From: an uncultured Conexibacteraceae bacterium
GTDB lineage: Bacteria > Actinomycetota > Thermoleophilia > Solirubrobacterales > Solirubrobacteraceae
Direction of reading: 5' to 3'
Assembly (NCBI GenBank): GCA_963832195.1
Contig: CAWHTH010000006.1
Span: 331,974-395,973, forward strand
DNA: 64,000 nucleotides
Shown: positions 11,610-42,639 of the stretch, piece by piece
How positions within the stretch are numbered: position 1 is the first letter of the stretch
Layout of the letters: each line of letters begins with the position of its first letter
The notes under the pieces: generated by a model
What the model was told of the DNA's origin: nothing
What the model saw: the letters and a program-made list of their open reading frames with translations, nothing else
The model's database searches: none
Position numbers and translations under genes: made by a program

Positions 11610-12782
<1,173 letters not shown>

Positions 12783-12801
12783 TGGTCTGGTTTCTCCTTA
12801 G

Positions 12802-12819
12802 ATTGACTGGTCAGTCAAT
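12802..12819. promoter_or_regulatory. Candidate operator: inverted repeat ATTGACTG-GT-CAGTCAAT just upstream of the acyl-CoA dehydrogenase RBS
   Basis: Perfect 8+8 nt palindrome read directly, 20 nt upstream of the GTG start at 12782. Its size and position fit a TetR/FadR-type fatty-acid regulator site. No such regulator gene is adjacent. Confidence 0.45.
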
Positions 12820-12869
12820 GACCGTGGACAGAGTACCCCACTCCCTGGCGCAGGCAACACGGTTACCGG

Positions 12870-13004
12870 TCAGAAGACAACGCGAGCAGCCATGTAGATC
12901 CCGCCCGCCACGGCCGCGAGCGTGACGAGCACGAGCCCCCACTGCTCGGGGAACACGGCCGGGCGGCGGGGAGCGAAGGTCTTACGGCGTACGCGTCGCC
13001 ACAT
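12870..13004 (-). CDS. Possible 44-aa single-TM small protein (below the ORF-track cutoff)
   Basis: My translation: MWRRVRRKTFAPRRPAVFPEQWGLVLVTLAAVAGGIYMAARVVF. Basic N-terminus plus one hydrophobic helix. No RBS checked and no homology claim. Confidence 0.25.
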   Translation of the reverse strand: MWRRVRRKTFAPRRPAVFPEQWGLVLVTLAAVAGGIYMAARVVF

Positions 13005-13028
13005 GCCCACGAGCGTACGCTGTGGACC

Positions 13029-13442
13029 GTGGAAGACGCCTTCGGTCCCGTGCTGTTCGGCGTGGTGGCCGTCGGGGTGGTCTGCGCCTTCATCGCGATC
13101 CTCGGCGTCGGGAAGGCCTACAAGCAGATCGGGCGCGGCGGCCTCTCGCTCAACGAGGACCTCCCGCCGCGGGCGCCGACCGGCGCGGCCGCCCTGCGCG
13201 AGCGCGACGAGGAGATCCGCCAGATGCTCGACGCGCGCAACGCCCGCCGCCGCGCCCGTGGCGAGCCGGAGGTCGACGTCGAGGCCGAGCTCGCCGCATT
13301 GGTCAAACCCGCAGTCGACCCGGAGCTGGCGCTGGAGATCCGGCAGCTCGTCGAGGCCCGCAACGAGCGGCGCATGCGCCAGGGCAAGGAGCCGCTCGAC
13401 GTCGAGGCGGAAATCGCGCGCCAGCTACGCGAGCTGACCTGA
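13029..13442 (+). CDS. Membrane-anchored hypothetical protein with an internal duplicated motif
   Basis: 137 aa. N-terminal TM helix (VLFGVVAVGVVCAFIAILGV). Two copies of EIRQ[ML][LV][DE]ARN[AE]RR..[RQ]G[EK].[EP].DVEAE[LI]. Confidence 0.5.
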   Translation: MEDAFGPVLFGVVAVGVVCAFIAILGVGKAYKQIGRGGLSLNEDLPPRAPTGAAALRERDEEIRQMLDARNARRRARGEPEVDVEAELAALVKPAVDPELALEIRQLVEARNERRMRQGKEPLDVEAEIARQLRELT

Positions 13443-13454
13443 TACAAACGCCAC

Positions 13455-13778
13455 ATGGCGATCCGCCGCTTCGAGATCGACGACATCCTCAACCGCCCGG
13501 GCACCTACTTCAACCCGCAGCTCGAGGTGCTCATGGTCATCGACGACTCGCCCGAGCTCGACGGCGAGATCTTCAACATGGAGGAGTTCGAGGGCGCGGA
13601 CTGGGTGCTGATCTCGGAGGACTCGCCGATCGAGGAGCACGTCCGCGACGAGCTGCTGGAGCGCTTCCAGTCGCGCCACGGCCCCGTCGCGTCGGGTGCG
13701 ATCCCGGCCAACGAGGACGACGAGGACGAGATCGACGAGATCGAGCCCGACGAGGACGACGAGGTCGAGGAGCTCTAG
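13455..13778 (+). CDS. Acidic hypothetical protein
   Basis: 107 aa, coding-like composition with a poly-acidic tail (NEDDEDEIDEIEPDEDDEVEEL). Starts 12 nt after the preceding gene. Confidence 0.5.
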   Translation: MAIRRFEIDDILNRPGTYFNPQLEVLMVIDDSPELDGEIFNMEEFEGADWVLISEDSPIEEHVRDELLERFQSRHGPVASGAIPANEDDEDEIDEIEPDEDDEVEEL

Positions 13779-13784
13779 CCGGCG

Positions 13785-14897
13785 CTAGCCGGCGAAGAAG
13801 AACGCGATCCCGAGGACGAGGTAGACGGCCAGCAGCTGCACGCCCTCGTACCAGGTGGACTCGCCCTCCTGTGTGACCTGCATGGCGATCAGCGCGGCCA
13901 GGAACACGGCCCCGAGCTCGAAGCCGTTGAGGACGAGCGGCATCGGGTGCGGCCCCAGGAAGAACGAGGCCAGCACGAGGATCGGCGTCGCGAAGATCGC
14001 AATCTGCGCGGCCGACCCGATCGCGATGTTCACCGCGAGGTCCATCTTGTTCTTGAACGCCACCAGCACGGCGACCCAATGCTCGGCGGCGTTGCCGACG
14101 ATGGCCACCACGATCACGCCGATGAAGAACTCGCTCAGCCCGACCGTCTCCGCTGCTTCGGAGATCGAGCCCACAAGGATCTCGGACATGATGCCGACCG
14201 CGACGCCCGCCAGCGCGAGCATCGCGACCGAGCGTCGCACGGACCAGGGCTCGTGGCCCTCCTCGTGCTCCTGCTCGGGGTTGAACAGGTCGCGATGGGT
14301 GCGCAGCGAGAAGACCAGTCCCAGCACGTAGGACACGATCAGGATGATCGCCACGAACAGCGAGAGCTGTTCGACATCGCTGCCGAAGTTCTGGCGCTCG
14401 ATCTCGGGTGACGGCAGGGAGCCGGCGTCGACGAGCTGGAAGATCGCCGGCATCGCCATCGCGGCGACCGCCAGCAGCAACATCGACGCCTGCGCCGATG
14501 CAGCGGTGTGGTTGAACACCTGCTTGTCGCGGCCGAGGCCGCCGACGAGCATCGCGGCGCCGAGCACGAGCAGCACGTTGCCGAGGATCGACCCGATGAG
14601 CGAGGCCTTGACCACCTCGTGGAGCCCCTCGTGCAGTGCAAACAGGGCGATGATGATCTCGGGCGCGTTGCCGAACGTGACGTTCAGCAGGCCGCCGATG
14701 CCGGGGCCTGACCGGGCCGCCAGCTCCTCCGTCGCGCGGCCCATCAGCGCCGCGGTCGGGATCACGCCGAGCGCGGACGCGAAGAAGATGACCGCGGCAT
14801 CGGCATGCCCGATCTCGAGCGCGACCGCGCCCGGGATGAACGGGACGAGTAGGTACGGCCAGCCCTGCGGGCTAAAGAGGAAGCGGCTCAGCGCCAA
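13785..14897 (-). CDS. Ca2+/H+ antiporter (CaCA/CAX family)
   Basis: 370 aa, about 11 TM segments. Both alpha-repeat signatures are present: GNAPEIIIA and GNAAEHWVAV. Confidence 0.9.
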   Translation of the reverse strand: MALSRFLFSPQGWPYLLVPFIPGAVALEIGHADAAVIFFASALGVIPTAALMGRATEELAARSGPGIGGLLNVTFGNAPEIIIALFALHEGLHEVVKASLIGSILGNVLLVLGAAMLVGGLGRDKQVFNHTAASAQASMLLLAVAAMAMPAIFQLVDAGSLPSPEIERQNFGSDVEQLSLFVAIILIVSYVLGLVFSLRTHRDLFNPEQEHEEGHEPWSVRRSVAMLALAGVAVGIMSEILVGSISEAAETVGLSEFFIGVIVVAIVGNAAEHWVAVLVAFKNKMDLAVNIAIGSAAQIAIFATPILVLASFFLGPHPMPLVLNGFELGAVFLAALIAMQVTQEGESTWYEGVQLLAVYLVLGIAFFFAG

Positions 14898-20902: not shown

Positions 20903-21309
20903 GCGACGCAGACCTCGAGGTCGTGAACCGGGTGTGGGAGGTGTACGAGCGCCTCGGCACCCTCGGAATGGTCGACTTGATCGCCCCAGACGCCGTCTTC
21001 GAGGAATACGGCGGCGGTCCGGAGGCCGCGACCTACGCCGGTCCCGACGGCTTTTTGCAGATGGCCGCCAAATGGGAGACCGACTTCGTCGGCTTGCGCT
21101 TCGTGCGGGTAGGCGACCACGTTGCCCTCGGCAGCGGATTCGTCGCGACGCCCGTGCGGATGGTGGGCAGCGGTCGCGCCAGCGGAGCCGTGGTCGAATG
21201 GGAATTGGTCCAGGGCAACCGCGTGCAGGATGGGCTGCTCACGAACCAGTTCTACGGCGACGACCTCGACGCGATCCGCGCGCGGATGGCCGAGCTACTC
21301 GCCGGCTAG
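20899..21309 (+). CDS. NTF2-like (SnoaL-like) protein
   Basis: 136 aa. GTGA overlap with the AAA+ stop. Pattern VVNRVWEVYE....MVDLIAPDAVFEE... Confidence 0.65.
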   Translation: MSDADLEVVNRVWEVYERLGTLGMVDLIAPDAVFEEYGGGPEAATYAGPDGFLQMAAKWETDFVGLRFVRVGDHVALGSGFVATPVRMVGSGRASGAVVEWELVQGNRVQDGLLTNQFYGDDLDAIRARMAELLAG

Positions 21310-22083
21310 GCGCGCGGCGCCGTCGTGAGGCCGCCGTCGGCGATGAGGCACTGGCCGGTCACATACGACGCTTCCGCCGACAGGAGAAACAGCGCCGCGC
21401 TGGCGACCTCCCATGCGGTGCCCTGGCGTCCGAGCGGGATCTTCACCTGCTCGCGCCGGGCACTTAATCGAGAGGCGGCACGGCCGAGGGGCGTGTCGAT
21501 CAGGCCGGGGTGCAGGACGTTCACGCGGACGCCCGGTGCACCCTCGGCGGCCGCCTGGCGACAGAGCGACTCCAGCGCGGCCTTCGACGCGCCGTATGCG
21601 GGCCAGGGCATCACCTCCCGCGCCGCGACCGAGCCGATCAGGACGATCGCGCCGCCCTCGGCCATCGCCACAAGGCCGTGCTTGCAGCCGGGGAAATGCG
21701 ACCTCAGGTTGACGGCCAACACGCGGTCCCAGTCCTCCACGCTGGTGCCCCGCAGCGCGAAGCCCGCCCCGACGCCGACGTTGAGCACGACGCCGTCGAT
21801 TCCGCCGAGCGCCTCCTGCGCGCCCGCGAACATCGCCTCCGAGGCGGCCGCGTCGGGCGGCGTCGGCGACGAGCACGACAGCTCGTCCGCCTTCCTCCTC
21901 GACGAGGTCCGCCGTGGCCCGCGCGCTCGCCTCGTCGATGTCCGCGACCGCCACCCCGGCGCCCTCGCGCGCGAACAGGACGCACATCGCCCGGCCGTTG
22001 CCGATCGGCGGGTCGTCGAGCCCGTAGTCCTGCTGGCCACCTCCGACGACGAGGATGCACCGCCCCTCGAGACGTCCCGGCAT
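21306..22083 (-). pseudogene. Short-chain dehydrogenase/reductase with an apparent +1 frameshift (or sequencing indel)
   Basis: N-terminal 75 aa are in the frame of ORF 21295..22083 (ILVVGGGQ..GNGRAMCVLFAREGAGVAVADID..AVVLVADAA). The rest is in the frame of ORF 21306..22040 (DAAASEAMFAGAQEALGGIDGVVLNVGVG..YGASKAALESL..). Removing one G from the GGG at 21855-21857 joins them. Confidence 0.8.
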
Positions 22084-23822
22084 CAGTCCTCGAACAGCGC
22101 GTAGCCGTAGGCGCCGCGCTTGTACGCCAGGCGCGCGATCGAGTGCTGGCGGTCGTCGTCGTTGTCCGACAGACGGCGCAGCTCCGACCGCACGCGCCCC
22201 GCCGCGCGTGTGCAGAACGTGTCCGCGATGTAGCGCTCCTGGCCGCTGGCCTCGACGCCCTGGTCCTCGAAGATCGCCGTGACGCGCGAGAGGACGGCGA
22301 TCTGGGCCAGGATGTCGCTCAGCGCGCTCGAGTAGCGCTTGTGCGACAGGCCCTGGTTGATGACGTCCTTGCCGTGCCTGCGCAGCAGCGCCTCGCCGCA
22401 GTCGCGCAGCTGCTTGACCTGGTCGCCGACGGCGTCGGCCAGCTTGTCTACCTCAGGGTGCGCCTTGCTGATGCGATCCGGCCGCACCTCGCGCTTGACG
22501 CGCCCGAACGCGTACTCGGCGATCGTCCCGAGCGCCCCGATCGGGTTCGTCAAGTCCAGATCGCCGAGCTCCTTGAGCTCCTCCCCCAGCGGCTTGAGCG
22601 CGGTCAGCGCGATGTACGAGCGCATCACGTCGTTGGCGCCCTCGAAGATCGGGAAGATGCGGATGTCGCGGACGATCTGCTCGTACGGCTCGTCGCGCAT
22701 GTAGCCCTTGCCGCCCGCGAGCTGGAGCGCACGATTCGCCGCGTACCAGACGAACTCGGTGCCGGTGACCTTGCAGATCGCCGACTCGATCGCGTAGTCC
22801 TCGATGCCGGCGTCGACCATGCCGGTCGTCATGTAGGCCATCGACTCGAGGCCGAACAGGTAGCTCACCATCCAGGCGATCTTGTCCTCGACCATGTCGA
22901 AGTCCGCGAGCGGCTTGCCGAACTGGCGCCGCGTCGTGACGTGGTCGATCGTGAGGTCGATCAGCCGCTTGGCGAGGCCGACCGAGCCCGTCCCGAGGCC
23001 GATGCGCCCGTTGTTGAGGACATGCATCGCGATCTTGAAGCCATCGCCGGGCTCGCCGAGGACGTTCTCGGGCGGCACGCGCACGTCGTTGAAGCGCACC
23101 GGGCAGAGGTGGTTGCCGCGCAGCCCCATCGTGTCGTAGCGCGGGCCGGATTGGTCGAGGCCGTCCATCCCCTTCTCGAGGATCAGCGCGATGTGGCTGT
23201 CCTTGCCGTCGATCTCGCAGCGCGCGAACGTGCACAGCACGTGGCCGCGGCAGCCGTTGCCGATCCACCGCTTCTCGCCGTTGAGGACCCAGGACCCGTC
23301 CGGCTGCTTCACCGCGCGGCTTTGGATGTTGTAGGCGTCCGACCCCGCCTCGGGCTCGGTCAGCGCGAAGGCCGCCAGCTTGCGGCCGCTCACGAGGTCC
23401 GGCAGGAACCGCTCCTTCTGCTCGTCCGTGCCATACAGCGAGATGCCCTTGAGGCCGATCGACTGGTGCACCCCCAGCGCGATCGTCAGCGAGCCGTCGA
23501 CCTGGCCGATCGCCTCGAAAACGCGCGCGTAGCCGGTCTGGCTGAGGCCCTGGCCCCCGTACTGCTCGTCGACGTACAGGCCCATCACGCCGATCTCGCC
23601 GAGGTCGCGGAAGACCTTGTCGTCGATCTTTCCTGTCTCGTCGATCTCGCGGGAGTTGATGTTCGCGGCCGCGTACGCGCGGAAGTCCTTGATCAGGCGC
23701 CGGACCTTCTCGGCCTCCTCGCCGCGCGGGATCGGATAGGGGAAGACGATGTCCTCGTGGATCTCGCCGAGCGCGAGAGCCTTGGAGAAACTCGAGACAG
23801 CGGTGGGGGCATCGACGCTCAT
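22083..23822 (-). CDS. Long (VLCAD/ACAD9-like) acyl-CoA dehydrogenase
   Basis: 579 aa with ALTEPEAGSDA, EKRWIGNG, IFPIFEGANDV and an extra C-terminal helical domain. The stop overlaps the SDR start by 1 nt. Confidence 0.92.
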   Translation of the reverse strand: MSVDAPTAVSSFSKALALGEIHEDIVFPYPIPRGEEAEKVRRLIKDFRAYAAANINSREIDETGKIDDKVFRDLGEIGVMGLYVDEQYGGQGLSQTGYARVFEAIGQVDGSLTIALGVHQSIGLKGISLYGTDEQKERFLPDLVSGRKLAAFALTEPEAGSDAYNIQSRAVKQPDGSWVLNGEKRWIGNGCRGHVLCTFARCEIDGKDSHIALILEKGMDGLDQSGPRYDTMGLRGNHLCPVRFNDVRVPPENVLGEPGDGFKIAMHVLNNGRIGLGTGSVGLAKRLIDLTIDHVTTRRQFGKPLADFDMVEDKIAWMVSYLFGLESMAYMTTGMVDAGIEDYAIESAICKVTGTEFVWYAANRALQLAGGKGYMRDEPYEQIVRDIRIFPIFEGANDVMRSYIALTALKPLGEELKELGDLDLTNPIGALGTIAEYAFGRVKREVRPDRISKAHPEVDKLADAVGDQVKQLRDCGEALLRRHGKDVINQGLSHKRYSSALSDILAQIAVLSRVTAIFEDQGVEASGQERYIADTFCTRAAGRVRSELRRLSDNDDDRQHSIARLAYKRGAYGYALFED

Positions 23823-29836: not shown

Positions 29837-30154
29837 CTAGTCGCGCCCGCCGAGCAGGTGCACGTCGACGAGGAACGAGCGGCTCGCGACGACGGTGCCC
29901 AGCGCACTGCGCGCCCGGCTGCTGCGCTTCAGCGCCTTCTTGGCGCGGTGCCGGCGTACGACGGCGACCGTCACGGCGCCCGCGGCAAAGCCGCTCGCGG
30001 CCAGGACGGCCGCCTGCGCAGTGAACGGGACGAGCGGCGGCGGCTCGTAGACCGCCTCGGGCGCGGGGGCGCCCGCGGGAACAAGCAGGGCGTCGACGAT
30101 CTCGACGTCGTCGTCGCTCGTCGCAGCCGGGTCGTCAGCGTGCAGTTCGGTCAC
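29837..30154 (-). CDS. Hypothetical single-TM protein
   Basis: 105 aa. Acidic N-terminus, one TM (AAVLAASGFAAGAVTVAVV), basic tail. Confidence 0.4.
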   Translation of the reverse strand: MTELHADDPAATSDDDVEIVDALLVPAGAPAPEAVYEPPPLVPFTAQAAVLAASGFAAGAVTVAVVRRHRAKKALKRSSRARSALGTVVASRSFLVDVHLLGGRD

Positions 30155-30166
30155 CGAAGCCGGATG

Positions 30167-30793
30167 CTACCCGGCTCCTCCGGCGCCACGACGCCGCGGG
30201 GCTGTCCGGAAGACGTGGTCCCAGTACGGCGCGCTGACGCCGAAGCCGCGCTCGTCGTCCTGGAAGTGGTGGCGCATGTGCAGCTCGCGCAGCGCCCTGC
30301 CCATGGGCGTGCGCGGCGTGTGGTGATGCAAGTGGTAATGCAGCATGTCGTAGGCCAGGTACCCGACCAGGAACCCGCCGCCGAACGCCACGGCGGCGTC
30401 GTAGCCGAGCACCGCCCAGAACAGGCCCAGGAACGCCAGCGCCAGTGGGATCGACGCCGACGGCGGCATGACGAGCCTCAGCGGGTCGTTCGGGTGGTCA
30501 TGGTGGACGCCGTGGATCATCCAGTGCATCCGCGCGCCGACGCCGTCGTCGGGCTCGAAGTGGAAGACGACCCGGTGCAGCCAGTACTCGGTCAGGGTCC
30601 AGAAGACGTAGCCCGCGAGAGCGACGGCGATGCCCACCTGCGTGCCGAGGCGCTCCATGCCGGTGACCAGCAGGACTGCGATCGCCGGGCTGAAAAGGAC
30701 CAGCGGGACGGCTGGATGCACACGCGTGAAACGGTCAAGGACGACCGAGTCGAACATGGGCGGCGAAGCCCGCAGTTGCTCCGAGCGACGCAT
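30167..30793 (-). CDS. Fatty acid hydroxylase superfamily protein (FA2H/Scs7-like)
   Basis: 208 aa with the four His boxes in FA2H arrangement: HRVVFH, HGVHHDHPNDPLRLVMPP, YDMLHYHLHHH, HMRHHFQDDERGFGVSAPYWDHVF. Confidence 0.85.
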   Translation of the reverse strand: MRRSEQLRASPPMFDSVVLDRFTRVHPAVPLVLFSPAIAVLLVTGMERLGTQVGIAVALAGYVFWTLTEYWLHRVVFHFEPDDGVGARMHWMIHGVHHDHPNDPLRLVMPPSASIPLALAFLGLFWAVLGYDAAVAFGGGFLVGYLAYDMLHYHLHHHTPRTPMGRALRELHMRHHFQDDERGFGVSAPYWDHVFRTAPRRRGAGGAG

Positions 30794-30840
30794 CGTTGCC
30801 CAACTCTACCGCCCCTGCGGACAGTCCTGTTAGGGCTGCC

Positions 30841-31962
30841 TTAGAGCCCGCGTTCGTACATCCGGTAGCGCTTGACGATGCGGCCGTTCATCGCCTCCAT
30901 GCCCCGGTTCATCGCCTCGTTGGTCTCCAGGATCCAGCCCATCTCGCCGCCCTTTATGCGGGCATGGCGAGCGGCCGTGTCGAAGTGCTCGGCGTACAGG
31001 AGCGCCGCGACGCCGGTGTGCTGGTGCTCGGGCTTGACGCCGAGGAAGCCGACCCGCACGCGGTCGATGATCTTCGCCCTGCGCAGGAAGTGCCACCAGC
31101 CGAACGGGAGCAGCCGCCCCCGCATCCGCTCGAGCACCTGGTTTATGTCCGGCACGGTGATCGCGATCCCCACGGGCTCGCCATCGCTCTCGGCGACCAT
31201 GAACCAGTTGCGGTCGAAGACGAGCTGCAGCTCCTGGGCGTACGCGTCGAGGTCCTCCTTCGAATACGGCACGAAGCCCCAGTTCCGGCGCCAGGCGCGG
31301 TTGTAGATCTCGCCGAACAGGTCGAGGTCGCGGCGCAGGCGCCGGCGCGACATCCGCCGCAGCGTGACGCCGTGCTGCGACTGGGCCTGCTCGGCCAGCT
31401 CGAAGAGAATCGGTAGCGCCTGCTCGCGGTCAGCGACCTCCAGGTTCCACATGTACAGGTCCACCACCTTTTCGAGGCCCGCCTCCTCGCAGCGGCGCTG
31501 GTAATAGGGCGGATGCCAGGGCTGGCGCACCATCGGCCGCAGGTCGTGGCCGTCGATCACGATGCCGCTCTCGTCGTTCATCGCGAAGTCCGCCGGGCCG
31601 ACCATCCGCTGCATCCCACGCTCGCGCAGCCAGGCCTCGGCGGCGGCCAGGAGCGGCTCCAGCACGTCGGACTCGTCCTCGAGCTCCAGGAACCCGAACC
31701 AGCCCCAGCGCTCGCCGTGGTGCTCGTTGTAGGCGTGGTCGACGTGCGCGCTGATGCGCCCGACGACGCGCCCGGCGCGACGCGCCAGGAACAGCTGCGC
31801 CTCGCCGTGCTTGAAGAACGGCCCGAGCCGTCGGCTCAAAAAGATCCGGCGCTCGAGCCGCAGCGGCGGCACCCACGGCGTGCCCTCGTGGAGGCGGAAC
31901 GGCAGGTCGATGAACGCCCGGCGATCGCGGCCGCTCGCGACCGGAGTGACCTCGATGGGCAT
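30841..31962 (-). CDS. Large (373 aa) GNAT-family N-acyltransferase
   Basis: N-terminal FIDLPFRLHEGTPWVPPL..FFKHGEAQLFLARR.GRVVGRISAHVD. C-terminal GNAT motif A region GFLGVKPEHQHTGVAALLY. Confidence 0.75.
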   Translation of the reverse strand: MPIEVTPVASGRDRRAFIDLPFRLHEGTPWVPPLRLERRIFLSRRLGPFFKHGEAQLFLARRAGRVVGRISAHVDHAYNEHHGERWGWFGFLELEDESDVLEPLLAAAEAWLRERGMQRMVGPADFAMNDESGIVIDGHDLRPMVRQPWHPPYYQRRCEEAGLEKVVDLYMWNLEVADREQALPILFELAEQAQSQHGVTLRRMSRRRLRRDLDLFGEIYNRAWRRNWGFVPYSKEDLDAYAQELQLVFDRNWFMVAESDGEPVGIAITVPDINQVLERMRGRLLPFGWWHFLRRAKIIDRVRVGFLGVKPEHQHTGVAALLYAEHFDTAARHARIKGGEMGWILETNEAMNRGMEAMNGRIVKRYRMYERGL

Positions 31963-31989
31963 GGGCGGGGCACCCTATAGGGTGTCCAC

Positions 31990-33264
31990 GTGGCCCAGCG
32001 TGCCGCCGTCGATGTCTTCGAGAAGGCCCGCACGCACGAGCGCGCCGAGATCCTGCGCGCCGCCCGCGAGGCCGACGTGGTGCCCTATTTCCGCCTCCTC
32101 GAAGGTCCCGCGCGGCCGGTCGTAGAGATGGAGGGAGCCCAGCGGATCATGCTCGGCTCCAACAACTACCTCGGGCTCACGGCCGACGAGCGCGTCATCA
32201 ACGGCGCCCGCGAGGCGCTCGAGCGCTACGGCACCGGCCTGACCGGCTCGCGGCTCCTGAACGGCACGATCCCGCTGCACCTCGAGCTCGAGGCCGAGAT
32301 CGCGGACTGGATGGGCACCGAGGACGCGATCGTGTTCACGACGGGCCACCAGGCCAACATCGGGACGCTCGGCACGATCCTGCAGCCGGGCGACACCGTC
32401 GTGGCGGACTCCGGCGACCACGCCTCGATCCTCGATGGCTGCCTGCTGTCGCGCGCAAAGCTGCGGCCGTTCCGCCACAACCGGCTCGACAAGCTCGAGC
32501 GGGCGCTGGAGCGCGCTGCGGACGACGGCGGCGGCGTCCTCGTCGTCGTCGACGGCGTCTTCTCGATGGAGGGGGACATCGCCCCGCTGCGCGAGATCGC
32601 CGATCTGGCTCAGGCCCACGGCGCGCGGCTGATGGTCGACGAGGCTCACGGCGCCGGGGTCCTCGGCGCGCGCGGGGCCGGGACCGCCGAGCTGCTCCGG
32701 GTCGAGGACCGCGTCGACCTGCGGATGGGGACGTTCTCGAAGTCCCTGGCCTCGTGTGGAGGCTTCATCGCCGGCAGCGCCGAGGTGGTCGAGTTCCTAC
32801 GGATCCAGTCGCGCGCGTTCCTATTCACCGCCGCGGCCGTGCCGGCCGCCGTCGGCGCAGCGCTGGCGGCGCTGCGCGTAGTCCGCAGCGACGACGGCCG
32901 CGAGCTGATGGCGCGCGTGCTCGACAACGCGCGCTACCTGCGCGATGGCCTCGAGGAGCGTGGCTTCGCGGTGGTGGCACCGCAGCCGATCGGCGACGGC
33001 GGCGACATCGTCACGCCGATCGTGCCCGCGCTCGTCGGCGACGACTGGAAGGCCGCCCTGCTCTGGAAGGCGCTCTACGACGAGGGCGTCTTCGTCAACA
33101 CCGCGCTGCACCCCGCGGTGCCGCCCGGCGGGGCGCTTCTCCGCACCAGCGTCATGGCGACCCACGACCGCGCAACGCTCGAGGAGGCGCTCGATCGCTT
33201 CGCGTCGGTGAAGGCCCGCTTCGAGTCGGAGCACGGACCGTTGCCGGCTCCCGGTGCACACTGA
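31990..33264 (+). CDS. Alpha-oxoamine synthase, serine-palmitoyltransferase-like (PLP-dependent)
   Basis: 424 aa. YFRLLEG, MLGSNNYLGLT, YGTGLTGSRLLNGT, DSGDHASILDG, VVVDGVFSMEGDIAPL, MVDEAHGAGVLG, GTFSKSLASCGGF (PLP Lys). The GTFSKS and YF..E features fit SPT/ALAS-type enzymes better than BioF/KBL. Confidence 0.85.
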   Translation: MAQRAAVDVFEKARTHERAEILRAAREADVVPYFRLLEGPARPVVEMEGAQRIMLGSNNYLGLTADERVINGAREALERYGTGLTGSRLLNGTIPLHLELEAEIADWMGTEDAIVFTTGHQANIGTLGTILQPGDTVVADSGDHASILDGCLLSRAKLRPFRHNRLDKLERALERAADDGGGVLVVVDGVFSMEGDIAPLREIADLAQAHGARLMVDEAHGAGVLGARGAGTAELLRVEDRVDLRMGTFSKSLASCGGFIAGSAEVVEFLRIQSRAFLFTAAAVPAAVGAALAALRVVRSDDGRELMARVLDNARYLRDGLEERGFAVVAPQPIGDGGDIVTPIVPALVGDDWKAALLWKALYDEGVFVNTALHPAVPPGGALLRTSVMATHDRATLEEALDRFASVKARFESEHGPLPAPGAH

Positions 33265-36523: not shown

Positions 36524-37308
36524 CGCTCCAGCCGTTTCATCGCTGCCTCGAGCTCCGGCTCGCTCAGCTCGCCGAACGTCGTGTCGACGATACGCCCGCC
36601 CCGCCGCGCGAACGTGATCTGCGGGCAGACCGAGACGCCGTAGACGTTCGACACGCCGCCATCGCGGTCCCAGCCCACGGGGAAACTCCAGCGATGCTCG
36701 CGGATCAGGCCGCGCAGCTTGTCGCGGTCCCCGCGGATCGCCACCGCCGCGGCCTGGACCCGCGGATGGCGGCGCTGGACGCGCTCGAGCACGTCGAGCT
36801 GGCGGACGCACTGCGACCCGCGGTCCGCGAAGAACACGAGCACGACCGGGCCGCGCTCTCTGAGCTCGCACGAGTTCAGGATGTCCGCGCCCCGGACGTC
36901 GCAGGCCGGGCGGCGCCCGACCTCCTTGCTCTCCCCCTCGCGGCCCGTGGCCAGGTTGGCGTCGCCCTCGAGCGACGACAGCACGAGCGGCGCGGCGAAC
37001 GGCGCCAGGTCACCCCCGCTCGTCGGCGCCCGCACGCCGCCATTGGAGATCGCGTTGACCATCGCGACGATGATGACCAGCAGGAACACCACGCCGACGA
37101 ACCACACGTAGCGCGACGAGCCCGGCGGGCGCGGCACCGGTACGGGATCGCCCGGCTTCCGCCCTGGCGTTGGCTCGAAGTCGGGATCGCGGCGGTGCGC
37201 CCAGCGCCGGCGCTGCTCGGCGGCGTCGTCCTCGCGTGTCACTGAGGGGTCTGTCCCCTCGGTGTCATCGGGCTCGAAGTCGAGTGGCCCGCGCGGGTCG
37301 TCGCTCAT
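36520..37308 (-). CDS. Membrane-anchored TlpA/redoxin-like protein with a degenerate active site
   Basis: In-frame ATG at 37308 (ATGA overlap with the MMPL stop). TM helix YVWFVGVVFLLVIIVAMV. Thioredoxin-fold region VVLVFFADRGSQCVRQLD has a single Cys where CxxC is expected. The N-terminal tail contains element copy c. Confidence 0.7.
   Translation of the reverse strand: MSDDPRGPLDFEPDDTEGTDPSVTREDDAAEQRRRWAHRRDPDFEPTPGRKPGDPVPVPRPPGSSRYVWFVGVVFLLVIIVAMVNAISNGGVRAPTSGGDLAPFAAPLVLSSLEGDANLATGREGESKEVGRRPACDVRGADILNSCELRERGPVVLVFFADRGSQCVRQLDVLERVQRRHPRVQAAAVAIRGDRDKLRGLIREHRWSFPVGWDRDGGVSNVYGVSVCPQITFARRGGRIVDTTFGELSEPELEAAMKRLER
37237..37267. repeat. 31-nt palindromic element copy c (TGTCACTGAGGGGTCTGTCCCCTCGGTGTCA), in frame in the redoxin-like gene
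   Basis: 27/31 identical to copy a. On the coding (minus) strand it encodes TEGTDPSVT. Confidence 0.85.
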
Positions 37309-39928
37309 GCGGCCGGGGCGCGCGCGGGCGCGCCGGGGCGGCGCGGCAGCCTGACGCGCAGGAGGTGGCCGCGCTCGGCGAGCACGAGCACGGAGGGCAG
37401 CACGACCAGCACGCCGATCAGGGAGACGGTGAGGTCGACGACGGTGACCGCGCCGAAGTCGCGCAGCATGCGGATGTCGCTCAGGACGAGCACAGCGAAG
37501 CCGGCGATCGCGGTCGCGCCCGAAGCCAGCACTGCCGCCCCGGTCGAGCGATAGGTGCGCTCCAGCGCCTCCTGCGGCTCGTGGCCGGCCGCGCGCTCGC
37601 GCCGGTAGCGCTCGGCCAGCAGGACGGAGAACTCGGTCGAGATCGCGATCACGAGCGCGCCCAGGGTGACCGACATCGGGTTCAGCGGGATCTGGAGGCA
37701 GAAGAGCACGAGCGCCGACCAGCCGGTGGCCAGCGCGATCGGGATCAGCGGGACCACGGCGCGCTGCCACGAGCGCAGCGCTGCCAGCAGCACCAGCCCG
37801 ACCACCGCGAGGCCGGCGAGCAACAGCACCATCCGCCGCCACGTGGACGCGACGCGGTCGTTGGCTTCGGCCGCCAGCACCGGCAGCCCCGCGAGCTCGG
37901 CGCGCACGCCCGCCGGCGGCCGCAGCCGGGCGCGCATCGCCTCGATCACCTCCTGCTGGCGGTCGAGCGGCATCAGGCGGATGCCGAACGCGAGCGTCGC
38001 GGTCTTGCGGTCCGGCGTGATCACGCCCTGCGAGAAGTAGGCGGGTACGGCGTCGAGCAGGTCGTCGATCTGGTCCTTCGTGCGCGTCGACTGCTCGGAG
38101 CGGAACAGGTCCGGCAGCGAGAACGCCGGGCAGAGCTCGGCCTTCCCGCACCCGCGGGTGGAGCTGTAGCCGAAGCGCTTGAGGAGATCCCCCTGGTAGC
38201 GCGTCATCCAGCGCACGACCGCCGGCTCGGTCAGCCGGTCCGACGTCACGGTCACGTCGATCTGCCCGCCGACGCCGGTCGACTCCTGCAGCGCCTCGAG
38301 GTCGCGCAGCGCGCTCAGGTCCTGCGGCACGAGCTTCTGGATGTCGGACTCGACCTCGGTCTGGGTGTCGAGCGCCAAGGCCGATGACCGCCAGCGCCGC
38401 GCCGATCGCGAGCACCCGGGTAGGCCGGACCTGCGCGGCGCGCAGCGCACCGCCGCGCACGCGGGCGCCCACGGCGCCGAGCCGCCGCGCGACCGGGTTG
38501 TTGCGCAGCAGCTCCTCCGCGCCGCGCCCCGCGGGGGCGAACCGCTCAAGCGGGTTGCGCAGCCGGCCCGCAGCCGCTGAGCGCGGCGACGCCCAGCGTG
38601 AGCGCGCACAGCAGCGCCAGCGCGATGCCGCCGACGAGCAGGAACCCGAACGCCCGCACCATCGGCACCGGCGACAGCGCCAGCACCAGGAAGCCCGCCG
38701 CGGTCGCCGCGGCCGCGATCGCCACCGTCGGCGCCCCGTCGGCGGCCACCCCGTCGACCGCCGCGGCGAATGTCGGCGCCCGCCGCTCCTGTATTCGCGC
38801 CTGGAGCTGGATCGCGTAGTCGACCGCGAGGCCGATCAGCACCGGCAGCACGCCGATCGAGGCCATCGTCAGCTCTGCGCCGAGCAGCGACAGCACCCCG
38901 AACGTGAGGCCGGCCGCGGCCACGGCCACGCCCAGCGGCAACAGCCGCGCGGGCGCCCTGAACACCACCGCGAGCGTCAGCGCCATCACGATCAGCGCCG
39001 CGACCAGCAGCAGGAGGATCGACGAGCTGATCGAGTCCGTGAGGTCGGCGACCACCACGGGCGCGCCGGTCACCACGTACGTGCCGCCGTTGCGCAGCCG
39101 CCAGTCGGACATCGCGACCGCGCCGCGCACTAGCTCGATCGCCTCGCGGCGCCGGCTCTCGCTCAGGCCCGGCTTGAGCCGCACCTGCACGAGCGCGCTG
39201 TTGCGGTTCGGGAACAGGTAGGCGAAGCGCGCCTTCGGCGTCCCCGCCCGCTTCGTGTTGTCGAAGACGAGCTGCGCCACGAAGTCCGGGTCGTTGAGCT
39301 TCGGGATCGAGCGGATCCCGTAGCGCAGCGCGAGCTGCAGCGAGTCGCGCAGGAACTCGTTGTAGACCAGCTGCTCGGCCTGCTTGCCGAACTGGCGCGA
39401 GCGCTGCTTCGAGTAGCCGCGCCCGCGCGCGAGCTTGTACGCGGCGTCGGAGGCGCGCTTGGCCTGCTCGGCCTTCGCGCGCGTGCGCGCGCCGAACTGG
39501 TCGGAGATCTGGCGTACGGACTCGTTGATGAACGTCCCGGGCCCGAACACGACCTTGACCGGCTTCTCGCGCGCGAGGCGGCCGCACGGGCCGTTCGCCC
39601 CGCCCCGGATCTTGGCGCCCTTCGGCGCGTTGCCCGAGATGCAGCCCTCGAGCCCCAGTAGGCGCTCGATGTCCGAGGTCAGCACCAGCTTCGACAAGTC
39701 GCCGCGCACGAGCACGATGACAGCGTCCTCACCGAAGCGCTGGTGGTAGCGGTCGGTGGCCTTGAAGCTGTCGGTCCCGCGGCCCACGAGCGTGTCCGTC
39801 GCCGCGCTCGGCTCCAGGCGCAGCGCGAGCCCGCCGCCGACTGCCGCCAGCAGCCCGACGGCCAGCCCGACGGCCAGCGGCCGGCGCGCGGCGCTGCCCA
39901 TCAGCGCCTTCAGGACGGAGACCAGCAT
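37305..39928 (-). pseudogene. MMPL/RND-family transporter split over three frames (two +1 shifts, or sequencing indels)
   Basis: N-terminal half = ORF 38546..39928 (TM bundle ..VDYAIQLQARI..). The linker GRLRNPLERFAPAGRGAEELLRNNPVARRLGAVGARVRGGALRAAQVRPTRVLAIGAALAVIGL is in the frame of ORF 36520..38472. The C-terminal half, from LDTQTEVESDIQKLVPQD.., is in the frame of ORF 37305..39587. Confidence 0.8.
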
Positions 39929-39950
39929 GGGCGTGCTGGTCCGCCTGGCC

Positions 39951-41033
39951 CTACTCCATGCCGAGCGGGCCCTGGGACTCGCCGGAGAGGAACTGCCGCA
40001 CGAACGCGTTGTCCGAGTTGAACAGTTCCTCGGCGGGGCCTGACTCGACGATGCGGCCCTTCCACAGCACCGAGATGTGCTCGGCGACGCGGCGGGCGCT
40101 CATGATGTCGTGTGTGATGACCACGTAGGCGCCGCCGTTCTCCTCGTGGATCTCCTGGATGAGCTCGCACAGGAGGGCGGTGCGGACGGGGTCGAGCCCG
40201 GAGTCGGGCTCGTCGAAAAGGACGATGTCGGGGTCGAGCACGAGCGCGCGCGCGAACCCGGCGCGCTTGCGCATGCCGCCCGACAGCTCGTTGGGCATCT
40301 TGTCGCCGGAGTCCGCCAAGCCGACCTCGCGCAGGCGGCCGTTGCAGATCTCGGCGATCTCGTCCTCGCCCTTGTCGGTGTGCTGGCGCAGCGGGAAGGC
40401 GACGTTGTCGTACAGGTTCATCGAGCCGAACAGCGCGCCGTCCTGGAACAGCACGCCGAACTTCTTGCGCATCTCGAACAGCTCGTCGTCCTGCATGTTC
40501 GGGACGGACTCGCCGTGCACGAGCACGTCGCCCTCGTCGGGGTACAGCAGGCCGACCATGTGCTTGATGCAGACGCACTTCCCGGTGCCCGAGGGGCCAA
40601 GGATCATCGAGATCTTGCCCTCGGGGATGCCCATGTTCAGGCCGCGCAGGATCTTGTTGCGCCCGAACGCCTTGTGGACGTCGACGAACTCGACCGCATC
40701 CGGCACGCCCGTCGGGCGGTTCAGGCCGGTGTGCCACTTGTACTCGTCGTCGGCGTCCGGCGCGGCCTCCTGGACGACGCTGACGCGCCCTCTCTCCTGC
40801 TCTTCCTTCGCGGCCGATGGCTCCTCCGCTGAGGCCTCGGCGGCCGCGTCCTGCTCCTGAGCCCGGACCTCCTCGGGCTGGTCCTCCACATCTTCACGCG
40901 TCGGCTGGTCCTCGAACGGCGCCGGCTCGTCGGACGGCAGCCACTCCGAGGACTTGCCCTCGTCCTTCTTCTTGGCCGCGGGCTTCTTGGCCTTGTCCTT
41001 GTCGTCCTTCGGCTCACGCGGGATCCGCGGCAT
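39951..41033 (-). CDS. MlaF/Mkl-type ABC ATPase with a 110-aa charged N-terminal extension
   Basis: In-frame ATG at 41033. GPSGTGKCVCIKHM, LSGGMRKRAGFARAL, VLFDEPDSGLDP. The N-terminus is MPRIPREPKDDKDKAKKPAAKKKDEGK.. followed by an acidic stretch. Confidence 0.88.
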   Translation of the reverse strand: MPRIPREPKDDKDKAKKPAAKKKDEGKSSEWLPSDEPAPFEDQPTREDVEDQPEEVRAQEQDAAAEASAEEPSAAKEEQERGRVSVVQEAAPDADDEYKWHTGLNRPTGVPDAVEFVDVHKAFGRNKILRGLNMGIPEGKISMILGPSGTGKCVCIKHMVGLLYPDEGDVLVHGESVPNMQDDELFEMRKKFGVLFQDGALFGSMNLYDNVAFPLRQHTDKGEDEIAEICNGRLREVGLADSGDKMPNELSGGMRKRAGFARALVLDPDIVLFDEPDSGLDPVRTALLCELIQEIHEENGGAYVVITHDIMSARRVAEHISVLWKGRIVESGPAEELFNSDNAFVRQFLSGESQGPLGME

Positions 41034-41035
41034 GC

Positions 41036-41833
41036 TCAACCTCCGATCGGGGCGCGCGGGTTCGCGCCCCAGAACAGCTGGGTCCCGAGCATCCCGATGA
41101 GATGCACGAGGACGATGTTCAAGACCATTGACTTGGCGGTCGCGGTACCCACCCCGACGGGACCACCGCCCGCGTTGTAGCCGTAGTAACAGCCCACTAG
41201 GACGATGGCGGTCGCCATCGCCATGCCCTTGATGACGCTGTACAACAGGTCGGGCGGGTTCTGGAACATCCAGAAGATCAGGAAGAACCCGCCGGACGAG
41301 ACCTCGCCTATCTGTTCGACCACCGCCAGGTAGCTGGCGAAGAACCCGGCGCCGACGGCGGCGAGGTACATGAACGGCAGCACGAGCCACGCGGCCAGCA
41401 GGCGGGTGGCGCACAGGAACGTGATCGAGTTGATGCCCATGACCTCGAGGGCGTCGATCTCGTCCGAGATGCGCATCGAGCCGAGCTCGGCGACGATGCC
41501 GGTGCCGACCTTCGCGGACATCATGTAGCCGAAGGCGTAGGGCACCAGCTCGCGCAGGTCGCACCAGGCCGCGAACACGCCCGCGTACGCGGGAGCGCCG
41601 ACCGCGCGGTTGAAGTACGCGCCCTCGATGCCGCACTGGAGGCCGATGATGAACACCAGGCCCCAGATCACGATCGTCGAGGAGAGGATCAGGATGCCCG
41701 ACTGGCGCAGCGCCTCGCCGAAGAAGCGGAAGACGCGCAGCCCGTAGACGTGCCCGAGCACGCGCCCGCAGAACTTCGCGATCTCGCCGGCCGAGGCGAT
41801 CCAGTCGCGCGGGACTGCGAACCAGCCGCCCAT
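41036..41833 (-). CDS. MlaE/YrbE-family ABC permease (second copy)
   Basis: 265 aa. MRISDEIDALEVMGINS and the GG.GVG.A...S motifs of MlaE/YrbE permeases. Confidence 0.88.
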   Translation of the reverse strand: MGGWFAVPRDWIASAGEIAKFCGRVLGHVYGLRVFRFFGEALRQSGILILSSTIVIWGLVFIIGLQCGIEGAYFNRAVGAPAYAGVFAAWCDLRELVPYAFGYMMSAKVGTGIVAELGSMRISDEIDALEVMGINSITFLCATRLLAAWLVLPFMYLAAVGAGFFASYLAVVEQIGEVSSGGFFLIFWMFQNPPDLLYSVIKGMAMATAIVLVGCYYGYNAGGGPVGVGTATAKSMVLNIVLVHLIGMLGTQLFWGANPRAPIGG

Positions 41834-42639
41834 CAGCGGATCACCTGGATCTCGGGATGGGTGGCAAGCAGCGTCTGGGTGAACACGTAGTTGAACGCGA
41901 ACACGCCGAGGAAGGCGATCACCACCGCCTGGTTGACGGCTCTACCCACCCCCTCCGCGCCACCGGAGGCGGTCATGCCCTTGTAACAGCAGACGATCGC
42001 GATGATCGCGCCGAACAAGGTGCATTTGAGGACCGACCCCCAGAGGTCCGTAGTAGAGGCGTTCGTGAAGAAGGTGGCCCAGAACGGGCCCAGCGGGGCG
42101 CCGTTCACAAGGGTTGCGATGACGCCGCCGAAGATGCCGAACAGCAGCGCGTAGACGTCGAACAGGCCGGTGACGAGCATCAGCGCCAGGAAGCGCGGCA
42201 CGACGAGGTTCTTGACAGGGTCGACGCCGAGGACCTGCAGGGCGTCGAGCTCCTCGCGGATCTTGCGGGCGCCGAGGTCCGCGGTGATGGCGGTGCCGGC
42301 GACGCCGGCGAGCACGATCGCGTCGACGAACGGCGCGAACTCTCTAATAGACGCGAGCACGAAGAAGCCGCCGAGCCGGTCCAGCGCGCCGAACAGGACG
42401 AGGAAGTTGGCGGCCTGCAGCCCGGGCGCGCCGTAGCCGAACGCCACGGTCGAGACCAGCAGCGGGAACCAGCACAGGCGCAGCGCGAACAGGAACTGCG
42501 ACACGAACTCGCCGCCGTACGGGTACGGCGGGCGAAGCGCAGAGACAATCGTCTTGCCGGTCAGGATCATCATGTCCCCGACCTCTTCGAGGACGCCCTT
42601 CGTCGGCAGGAAGACTCGATCAGCGGCGCTGCGGACCAC
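41833..42639 (-). CDS. MlaE/YrbE-family ABC permease (first copy)
   Basis: 268 aa. KIREELDALQVLGVDP, SGGAEGVGRAVNQAVV. Its stop overlaps the next start by 1 nt. Confidence 0.88.
   Translation of the reverse strand: MVRSAADRVFLPTKGVLEEVGDMMILTGKTIVSALRPPYPYGGEFVSQFLFALRLCWFPLLVSTVAFGYGAPGLQAANFLVLFGALDRLGGFFVLASIREFAPFVDAIVLAGVAGTAITADLGARKIREELDALQVLGVDPVKNLVVPRFLALMLVTGLFDVYALLFGIFGGVIATLVNGAPLGPFWATFFTNASTTDLWGSVLKCTLFGAIIAIVCCYKGMTASGGAEGVGRAVNQAVVIAFLGVFAFNYVFTQTLLATHPEIQVIR

Follow-up and report, generated by a model that had tools for sequence, protein, structure and literature searches.

A stretch of 64,000 nucleotides from an uncultured Conexibacteraceae bacterium of the order Solirubrobacterales (contig CAWHTH010000006.1, 1.08 Mb; hereafter the window, meaning the whole stretch that was analyzed, with a GC content of ~70%) carries three neighboring genes that we believe are likely to encode the first two steps of the bacterial ceramide pathway together with a tailoring hydroxylase, and the organism probably makes a sphingolipid-like lipid. 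The genes encode a serine palmitoyltransferase (SPT)-like alpha-oxoamine synthase (31990-33264, plus strand; 424 aa, GTG start; PF00155), a tandem-GNAT N-acyltransferase assigned to the YghO/bCerS family (30841-31962, minus strand; 373 aa; PF00583), and a predicted di-metal fatty-acyl 2-hydroxylase of the FA2H/Scs7p type without a cytochrome b5 domain (30167-30793, minus strand; 208 aa; PF04116). The original prediction, made by reading the letters of the sequence, had placed these three genes side by side and quoted characteristic motifs for each of them, all of which we recovered: the three open reading frames (ORFs) lie at these coordinates, show the codon-position GC signature of real genes (GC content at third codon positions, GC3, of 0.90-0.94), and give the corresponding Pfam matches and translations. 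On the minus strand, the GNAT gene (31962-30841) is followed after a 47-bp gap by the hydroxylase gene (30793-30167) and after another 12 bp by a 105-aa ORF (30154-29837), and the synthase gene is divergent from the GNAT gene, starting at 31990, 27 bp from the GNAT start.

Assignment of the three enzymes

The synthase contains an Aminotran_1_2 domain (PF00155, E = 1.4e-59), and the motifs PYFRLLE, GSNNYLGLT and GTFSKS are present in its translation. Two SPT models ranked first among the NCBIfam models (391 and 381 bits), followed by those for KBL (354 bits) and BioF (347 bits), and the best matches in the PDB were the SPTs of Sphingobacterium multivorum (314 bits) and Sphingomonas (277 bits), with KBL/BioF-type structures reaching at most 246 bits. 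For its phylogenetic placement, a neighbor-joining tree was built from 21 sequences (387 columns, 500 bootstraps), in which the references were BioF and Kbl of E. coli, Kbl of Ralstonia and Vibrio (both encoded beside tdh), BioF of Haladaptatus (encoded beside bioD), HemA of Rhizobium, and the SPTs of Sphingomonas parapaucimobilis, S. multivorum and E. coli B-type strains, the BL21 orthologue of the last having been characterized biochemically (PMC9386255). In 78% of the bootstraps, the Solirubrobacterales synthases formed a group with the validated SPTs and with all synthases encoded beside a GNAT. The full catalytic set of alpha-oxoamine synthases is conserved as well, i.e., the lysine that binds pyridoxal 5'-phosphate (PLP), the stacking histidine, an aspartate, a further histidine, and the carboxylate-binding arginine, with H144, D217, H220, K251 and R385 aligning with H159, D231, H234, K265 and R390 of the Sphingomonas SPT. 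In addition, the motifs GTGxTGSR and GTFSKS follow the SPT pattern rather than the KBL pattern (SVR, GTLGKA). On these sequence comparisons, we group the synthase with the experimentally validated SPTs and not with KBL, BioF or ALAS, in agreement with the original prediction, which had called it SPT-type rather than BioF or KBL from its motifs; the placement in a KBL or BioF clade that would have overturned this prediction was not seen.

That the synthase could instead be a housekeeping enzyme of threonine catabolism (KBL) or biotin synthesis (BioF), with a GNAT gene next to it by coincidence, would be consistent with the automatic annotation of its homologues as 8-amino-7-oxononanoate synthase by JGI pipelines, and with KBL and BioF models that score only ~40 bits below the SPT models. 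However, the synthase grouped with Kbl in 0.2% of the bootstraps and with BioF in 0%, and neither biotin (bio) nor threonine dehydrogenase (tdh) genes are found among the neighbors of the locus, as had been noted at the outset. Moreover, a synthase fused to a GNAT exists, and the two genes are adjacent in at least five phyla (see below). We consider this explanation largely refuted and exceedingly improbable.

For the GNAT, the Pfam match (PF00583, E = 6.9e-07) covers residues 222-333 only, and an NCBIfam scan of this protein and of the hydroxylase returned no matching model. An exhaustive HMMER search showed that it belongs to a large family of ~375-aa proteins, with 7,439 representative clusters at E ≤ 0.001 and 1,342 at E ≤ 1e-30. 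When compared by tblastn with plasmid and chromid records, it aligned over 99-100% of its length with E. coli YghO (34.5% identity), its Sphingomonas orthologue (32.7%), and proteins from Streptomyces (36.7%) and Rubrobacter (41.7%), and an alignment of 28 family members contained 18 invariant columns. The orthology of yghO (ECD_02850) and Caulobacter CC_1154 is taken from PMC9386255 (Fig. 9), and our own comparisons were made with YghO and its orthologues; CC_1154, named cerS, is needed for dihydroceramide formation (PMC11324152). E. coli YghO adjoins an operon encoding a fatty acyl-AMP ligase (in the position of AasR), an NAD-epimerase-family reductase (in the position of CerR), an acyl carrier protein (ACP) and the synthase (Spt), which agrees with the operon order aasR-cerR-acpR-spt of Caulobacter (PMC11324152), and the LptF/LptG paralogues that also lie beside YghO mirror the Caulobacter cluster. 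An AlphaFold model of the window GNAT (predicted local distance difference test, 82.6; predicted template-modeling score, 0.79) has a tandem-GNAT fold, and its nearest structures are a clavulanate-pathway tandem GNAT, glucosamine N-acetyltransferase, and the mycothiol synthase MshD (template-modeling scores of ~0.56-0.60). This modeled fold would suit the N-acylation of an amine. When a profile of the whole family was searched against the PDB, only weak matches to the GNAT core were obtained, and no solved structure of the family. Judged by its full-length homology, the protein is a member of the YghO/CC_1154 (bCerS) family, which performs the N-acylation in bacterial ceramide synthesis, and the original proposal of the large GNAT as the candidate for this step is thereby strengthened.

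The third protein contains a FA_hydroxylase domain (PF04116, E = 1.8e-18) and the His boxes HRVVFH, HGVHHDHPNDPLRLVMPP, YDMLHYHLHH and HMRHHFQDDERGFGV. Its residues 9-197 match the catalytic domain of yeast Scs7p (4zr0/4zr1; E = 1.4e-29), whose structure is annotated as a ceramide very-long-chain fatty acid hydroxylase, and the HxxxxH, HxxHH, HxxxHH and HxxHH motifs of the two proteins all align residue by residue. The alignment covers Scs7p residues 181-370 only, and the window protein has no cytochrome b5 domain; as plant FA2H enzymes also lack this domain (PMC10002949), it is not required for membership of the family. Soil metagenomes contain many homologues of 70-93% identity, which JGI pipelines label 'dihydroceramide fatty acyl 2-hydroxylase'. 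We regard the protein, from these alignments, as a clear homologue of Scs7p/FA2H, which upholds the original assignment to the sphingolipid fatty-acid 2-hydroxylases. Bacterial precedents exist: myxobacterial FA2H homologues are described, in a passage of PMC10002949 that cites Ring 2009, as functional and tied to sphingolipid formation.

Linkage and distribution of the genes

Adjacency of the synthase and GNAT genes recurs in at least five phyla. In Rubrobacter radiotolerans (plasmid 1), the two genes are followed by those for an NAD(P) oxidoreductase and an LTA-synthase-family protein; in Streptomyces sp. NBC_01001, by those for an NAD-epimerase and a condensation-domain protein. Nonomuraea gerenzanensis has a synthase gene divergent from the GNAT gene, which is followed by a CerR-like gene, and in Aureispira a reductase gene is divergent from the synthase gene, with the GNAT gene next. 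The synthase gene also adjoins the GNAT gene in metagenome-assembled genomes (MAGs) of Cytophagia, Planctomycetota and Caldisericaceae and in one unclassified MAG. Among the Proteobacteria, Roseomonas has a full proteobacterial cluster, Sphingomonas has the same gene set as the E. coli yghO locus, and a plasmid of Acidisoma sp. PAMC 29798 carries genes for a GNAT, a short-chain dehydrogenase/reductase (SDR), a synthase, an FA2H-like protein and a GT1 protein. Finally, a natural synthase-GNAT fusion was found in a 780-aa protein (P0276), of which the N-terminal oxoamine synthase and the C-terminal GNAT are 45% and 40% identical, respectively, to the window proteins. The cross-phylum linkage is drawn mainly from a plasmid collection, the loci from our genome scan being almost all from Solirubrobacterales. 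It is this linkage, together with the fusion, that carries the argument for a functional link: synteny inside Solirubrobacterales is general, and adjacency within the order is therefore weak evidence when taken alone.

In two of these clusters, we also observed genes of the LTA-synthase family (sulfatase-like): one follows the synthase-GNAT-reductase operon of Rubrobacter (locus L086 of our set, 12437-14506), and another lies in the Acidisoma cluster (L096, 18439-19794). It is possible that in these two organisms the encoded protein is a head-group transferase for a ceramide-type lipid.

To assess the distribution of the pair among relatives, one genome per GTDB species was scanned, using patterns from a 10-sequence alignment, as the 28-sequence alignment was too diverse. 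The scan gave 596 relatives, of which the best 80 were retained, 76 of them from Thermoleophilia. The window synthase has its closest named relatives in Baekduia soli and in MAGs of Solirubrobacterales (79-88% identity), which places the source organism in this order (class Thermoleophilia, Actinomycetota). Among the 70 species loci with enough upstream sequence, the synthase gene was divergently adjacent to the GNAT gene in 51, and in 3 more it was partial or at an odd distance. The synthase-GNAT pair is thus near-core in Solirubrobacterales. Co-conservation of all three genes, which the original prediction had implied, stands for this pair and does not extend to the hydroxylase, which is confined to one sublineage. 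The flanking 292-aa and 115/128-aa genes are conserved in related loci too, and we ascribe their conservation to the general synteny of the region.

At 15 loci, a GNAT gene was found with no synthase gene nearby (L013, L018, L030, L035-L037, L040, L041, L043, L048, L057, L070, L074, L075 and L081). These GNATs are 47-69% identical to the window GNAT and have heterogeneous contexts, among which we sought a shared partner gene and found none. Either the gene has been relocated at these loci, or the proteins are paralogues that serve another function.

The hydroxylase gene lies beside the GNAT gene in only 2 of 72 GTDB species loci. Baekduia soli (CP042430.1, around 4.74 Mb) has the same arrangement of four genes as the window, with the synthase gene divergent from the GNAT gene and the hydroxylase gene next, and the same order was seen in three further long contigs that were found from the hydroxylase side. 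In all seven hydroxylase-bearing loci (the window, L001, L011, L019, L100, L101 and L102), the gene directly follows the GNAT gene on the same strand. The hydroxylase gene is an accessory gene of one sublineage, always at the same operon position. In one of these loci, the metagenome contig L102 (3579-5976), the synthase was called as ORFs of 201 and 145 aa and the GNAT as ORFs of 92 and 230 aa; this reflects either a decaying pair or a poor assembly.

Such a patchy distribution raises the question of whether the hydroxylase acts on the product of the pair at all. It might act on the acyl chain of a phospholipid, on an ornithine-type aminolipid or on a free fatty acid, and merely have landed at this position: most Solirubrobacterales loci with the pair lack it, enzymes acting on other substrates belong to the PF04116 family as well, and the conserved synteny of the region leaves within-order adjacency as weak evidence by itself. 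On the other hand, the constant position directly downstream of the GNAT gene, with a gap of 47 bp in the window, counts against a chance arrival, and the closest solved relative of the protein is a ceramide hydroxylase. PF04116 genes also recur in ceramide clusters of Proteobacteria, where they form two independent parallels: the FA2H-like gene of the Acidisoma cluster, whose product is 31% identical to the window hydroxylase by tblastn (37% over the local alignment), and a PF04116 gene of more distant relationship that directly precedes the GNAT gene in Roseomonas. We therefore consider an unrelated hydroxylase quite improbable, and favor a tailoring role in the ceramide-type pathway.

The missing reductase and the candidate product

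The original prediction had noted that a ketoreductase and an ACP are missing from the cluster, which holds over the whole window: tblastn searches with CerR-like reductases, AcpR and AasR from E. coli, Sphingomonas, Streptomyces, Rubrobacter and Roseomonas gave no match to any of the three anywhere in the 64 kb. It had also taken these absences as leaving room for a different product, an argument that loses its force for the ACP and keeps it for the reductase. Only the SPTs of Alpha-, Beta- and Gammaproteobacteria use dedicated AcpR and AasR proteins (PMC9386255, PMC11324152), and the absence of an ACP and a ligase is therefore expected here; homologues of AcpR and AasR were not found in related loci either. 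The reductase gap, however, is real. A CerR-type gene was adjacent in none of 76 Solirubrobacterales loci, whereas in Rubrobacter, Streptomyces and Nonomuraea a CerR-type reductase gene directly follows the GNAT gene. An epimerase gene in locus L101 was considered as a CerR candidate and rejected, as it scored 76 bits, compared with 95-146 bits among orthologues, and is not conserved. The reductase may be encoded at an unlinked site, as CerR is in Bacteroidota, which are known sphingolipid producers (PMC11334938); it may be replaced by another reductase, comparable to the classical SDR with which the Acidisoma cluster pairs its synthase and GNAT; or it may be absent, leaving a 3-oxo product.

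In the pathway that we propose, the PLP-dependent synthase would join a long-chain acyl thioester to an amino acid, which is most probably L-serine, in a condensation that releases CO2 and yields a 3-keto long-chain base. As there is no dedicated ACP or ligase, the thioester would probably be an acyl-CoA. The YghO/bCerS-type tandem GNAT would then N-acylate the 3-keto base, with acylation preceding reduction as in the Caulobacter route, and the membrane-bound Scs7p/FA2H-type hydroxylase would place a 2-hydroxyl group on the amide-linked acyl chain. The most likely product would be an N-(2-hydroxy)acyl long-chain base, i.e., a dihydroceramide if an unlinked reductase reduces C3, and a 3-oxo-ceramide otherwise. 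A broader version of this proposal, in which Solirubrobacterales make ceramide-type lipids near-universally with only Spt and bCerS, ending at 3-oxo-ceramide or proceeding via a reductase unrelated to CerR, and in which one sublineage adds a eukaryote-like 2-hydroxylation, is one that we put forward tentatively and hold to be rather doubtful.

The same chemistry could also lead elsewhere. If the amino acid used by the synthase were not serine but, for example, glycine or alanine, or if the acyl chain were short or unusual, the two enzymes would yield an N-acyl alpha-aminoketone rather than a membrane ceramide, such as a 1-deoxy-type base, a 3-oxo amide, or a signaling or secondary metabolite, and the lack of a reductase would then be genuine. 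In line with this, a CerR-type gene is linked in no relative, the synthase scores below the SPT equivalog cut-offs, the same enzymes can make 1-deoxyceramides from alanine (PMC11334938, supplement), and the condensation-domain protein in the Streptomyces cluster suggests elaboration of a secondary metabolite. However, the pair is near-core and sits in a conserved housekeeping neighborhood, as would be expected more for a membrane lipid than for a specialized metabolite, and an Scs7p-type hydroxylase is expected to act on long ceramide acyl chains (PMC10002949). Furthermore, the unlinked CerR of Bacteroidota takes weight from the reductase argument. We consider such a product unlikely and prefer the ceramide-type pathway.

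Several observations nevertheless weigh against that pathway. The synthase remains well under the equivalog cut-offs of the SPT models (391 versus 640 bits for the CFB model, 381 versus 500 for the beta model, and 307 versus 670 for the alpha model). The KBL and BioF models also score it below their curated cut-offs, and because the SPT models are lineage-specific, the low scores count against equivalog-level identity and leave the placement in the SPT clade untouched. That placement itself comes from a neighbor-joining tree of 21 sequences with moderate support. Where the Sphingomonas SPT has Arg378, the window synthase has a leucine, although the SPTs of S. multivorum and of E. coli B-type strains do not have an arginine there either. 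Some proteins of the GNAT family have no synthase beside them, in Shinella (in a different context) and at the 15 Solirubrobacterales loci listed above, and membership of the family is therefore no guarantee of function. Nothing convincing as a CerR-type reductase was found within 10 kb of the pair in ~70 relatives, and the hydroxylase is missing from most of them. Lastly, a literature search combining Solirubrobacterales, Thermoleophilia or Rubrobacter with sphingolipids returned no lipid data for the order.

Surroundings of the locus and relation to known systems

The divergent spacer between the synthase and GNAT genes (31963-31989, 27 bp) contains the palindrome CACCCTATAGGGTG, perfect over 14 bp (31971-31984). 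On either strand, TAGGGT stands 6-9 nt ahead of the start codon, which fits the actinobacterial -10 pattern TANNNT, and TAGGGT or TAGGTT is kept just upstream of the GNAT start in most related loci, often overlapping the synthase start codon. This arrangement suggests either overlapping -10 boxes of two leaderless transcripts or an operator site; a consensus scan of the locus for promoters and terminators gave nothing informative. On the other side, the 105-aa ORF (29837-30154, minus strand; GC3 0.90) encodes one hydrophobic segment. A small ORF of 97-125 aa always follows the hydroxylase gene, or the GNAT gene where the hydroxylase is absent (further copies at L001 7727-8062, L100 6624-7001, L101 6660-6953 and L002 8483-8794). 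No Pfam family matches this ORF, whose sequence is poorly conserved among the loci, and it is an uncertain member of the system.

Beyond this ORF, after 26 bp, lies a 292-aa gene (29810-28932, minus strand). This gene and the flanking 115/128-aa gene had been suspected of encoding the missing pathway steps, which was rejected: the 292-aa protein is an AlkA-like HhH-GPD glycosylase, and the 128-aa protein, for which a Pfam scan gave no match, presumably resembles an mIHF-type DNA-binding protein. The neighbors of the locus comprise an NMT1-type ABC transporter, the AlkA-like glycosylase, the small membrane ORF, the 128-aa ORF and a glyoxalase, and also an AAA/VWA pair, a SnoaL-like protein, a B3_4-domain protein, MMPL transporters and an MlaE/ABC system. 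The lipid-transport genes among these (37305-42639, minus strand) lie 4-10 kb downstream of the synthase gene and encode an MMPL protein that is apparently split (ORFs of 414 and 460 aa), an ABC ATPase and two MlaE permeases. They are followed in Baekduia soli (L001 14926-21302) by MlaD/Mce genes. The products of these lipid-transport genes could be lipid exporters or importers. An acyl-CoA dehydrogenase gene (22083-23822) is directly followed, about 9 kb from the locus, by a short-chain dehydrogenase gene (21295-22083, minus strand) that appears to be split over two frames, with the N-terminal Rossmann part in one and the catalytic part in the other. This points to a frameshift, a pseudogene or an error in sequencing, and the gene is not CerR-like. 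Finally, 27 kb from the locus, a 550-aa family-2 glycosyltransferase (60081-61733, minus strand) has a weak secondary match (E = 2.1e-5) to Glyco_transf_21, the ceramide glucosyltransferase family.

As both core enzymes come from described families, the locus is not a new kind of system, and the current picture of how bacteria make ceramides would remain unchanged even if our proposal is true. The original prediction had held that sphingolipids are not established in Gram-positives of this kind. For Actinobacteria at large this was too strict, since a 2022 phylogenomic analysis of Spt, bCerS and CerR, as related in passages of PMC12134224 and PMC11087976, named several Gram-positive Actinobacteria as potential producers. 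With ceramide genes in Actinobacteria already predicted, the locus extends a known pathway to a new lineage. What is added here is a synthase-GNAT pair with near-core status in an abundant order of soil bacteria, apparently CerR-less and coupled in one sublineage to a eukaryote-type hydroxylase. If CerR is truly lacking, sphingolipids would be made for a Gram-positive membrane by a variant of the bacterial pathway that does not depend on CerR. If the lipids are confirmed, sphingolipid-type lipids would be a core trait of Solirubrobacterales, an order that is very common in soil metagenomes and poorly cultured, and sphingolipids would be firmly extended into monoderm bacteria. Soil biomarkers based on ceramides and 2-hydroxy fatty acids would then have a further likely source in this order, which would also allow a natural test of whether CerR can be dispensed with or replaced.

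The best-described counterparts are Spt, bCerS and CerR of Caulobacter crescentus (CC_1162, CC_1154 and CC_1164) and those of E. coli B/BL21 (ECD_02854, yghO ECD_02850 and ECD_02852); the sphingolipid genes of the B strain are not present in E. coli K-12 (PMC9386255). The window shares with them a linked SPT-clade synthase and a YghO/CC_1154-family tandem GNAT, with presumed condensation followed by N-acylation. It differs from them in having no linked CerR-type NAD-epimerase-family reductase, AcpR/AasR or LptF/G paralogues, in its monoderm actinobacterial host, and in its divergent genes, which start from a 27-bp spacer. The acyl hydroxylases differ as well, that of the window being of the FA2H type and that of Caulobacter being the DesA-type CC_0202 (PMC11324152). 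Closer in taxonomy are the operons of Rubrobacter, Streptomyces and Nonomuraea, from the same phylum, which share both core enzymes with the window (41-43% and 37-42% identity) and likewise have no dedicated ACP or ligase; where these have a CerR-like NAD-epimerase gene after the GNAT gene, Solirubrobacterales have a hydroxylase or AlkA-like glycosylase gene. The Acidisoma sp. PAMC 29798 cluster resembles the window in bringing together a synthase, a YghO-type GNAT and an FA2H-like hydroxylase, and adds a classical SDR and glycosyltransferases, which imply a glycosphingolipid and are not linked in the window. The hydroxylase differs from Scs7p in lacking the cytochrome b5 domain, and shares with the Scs7p/FA2H enzymes, including the b5-less myxobacterial and plant forms, the four His boxes, the architecture of the membrane domain, and the linkage to ceramide genes.

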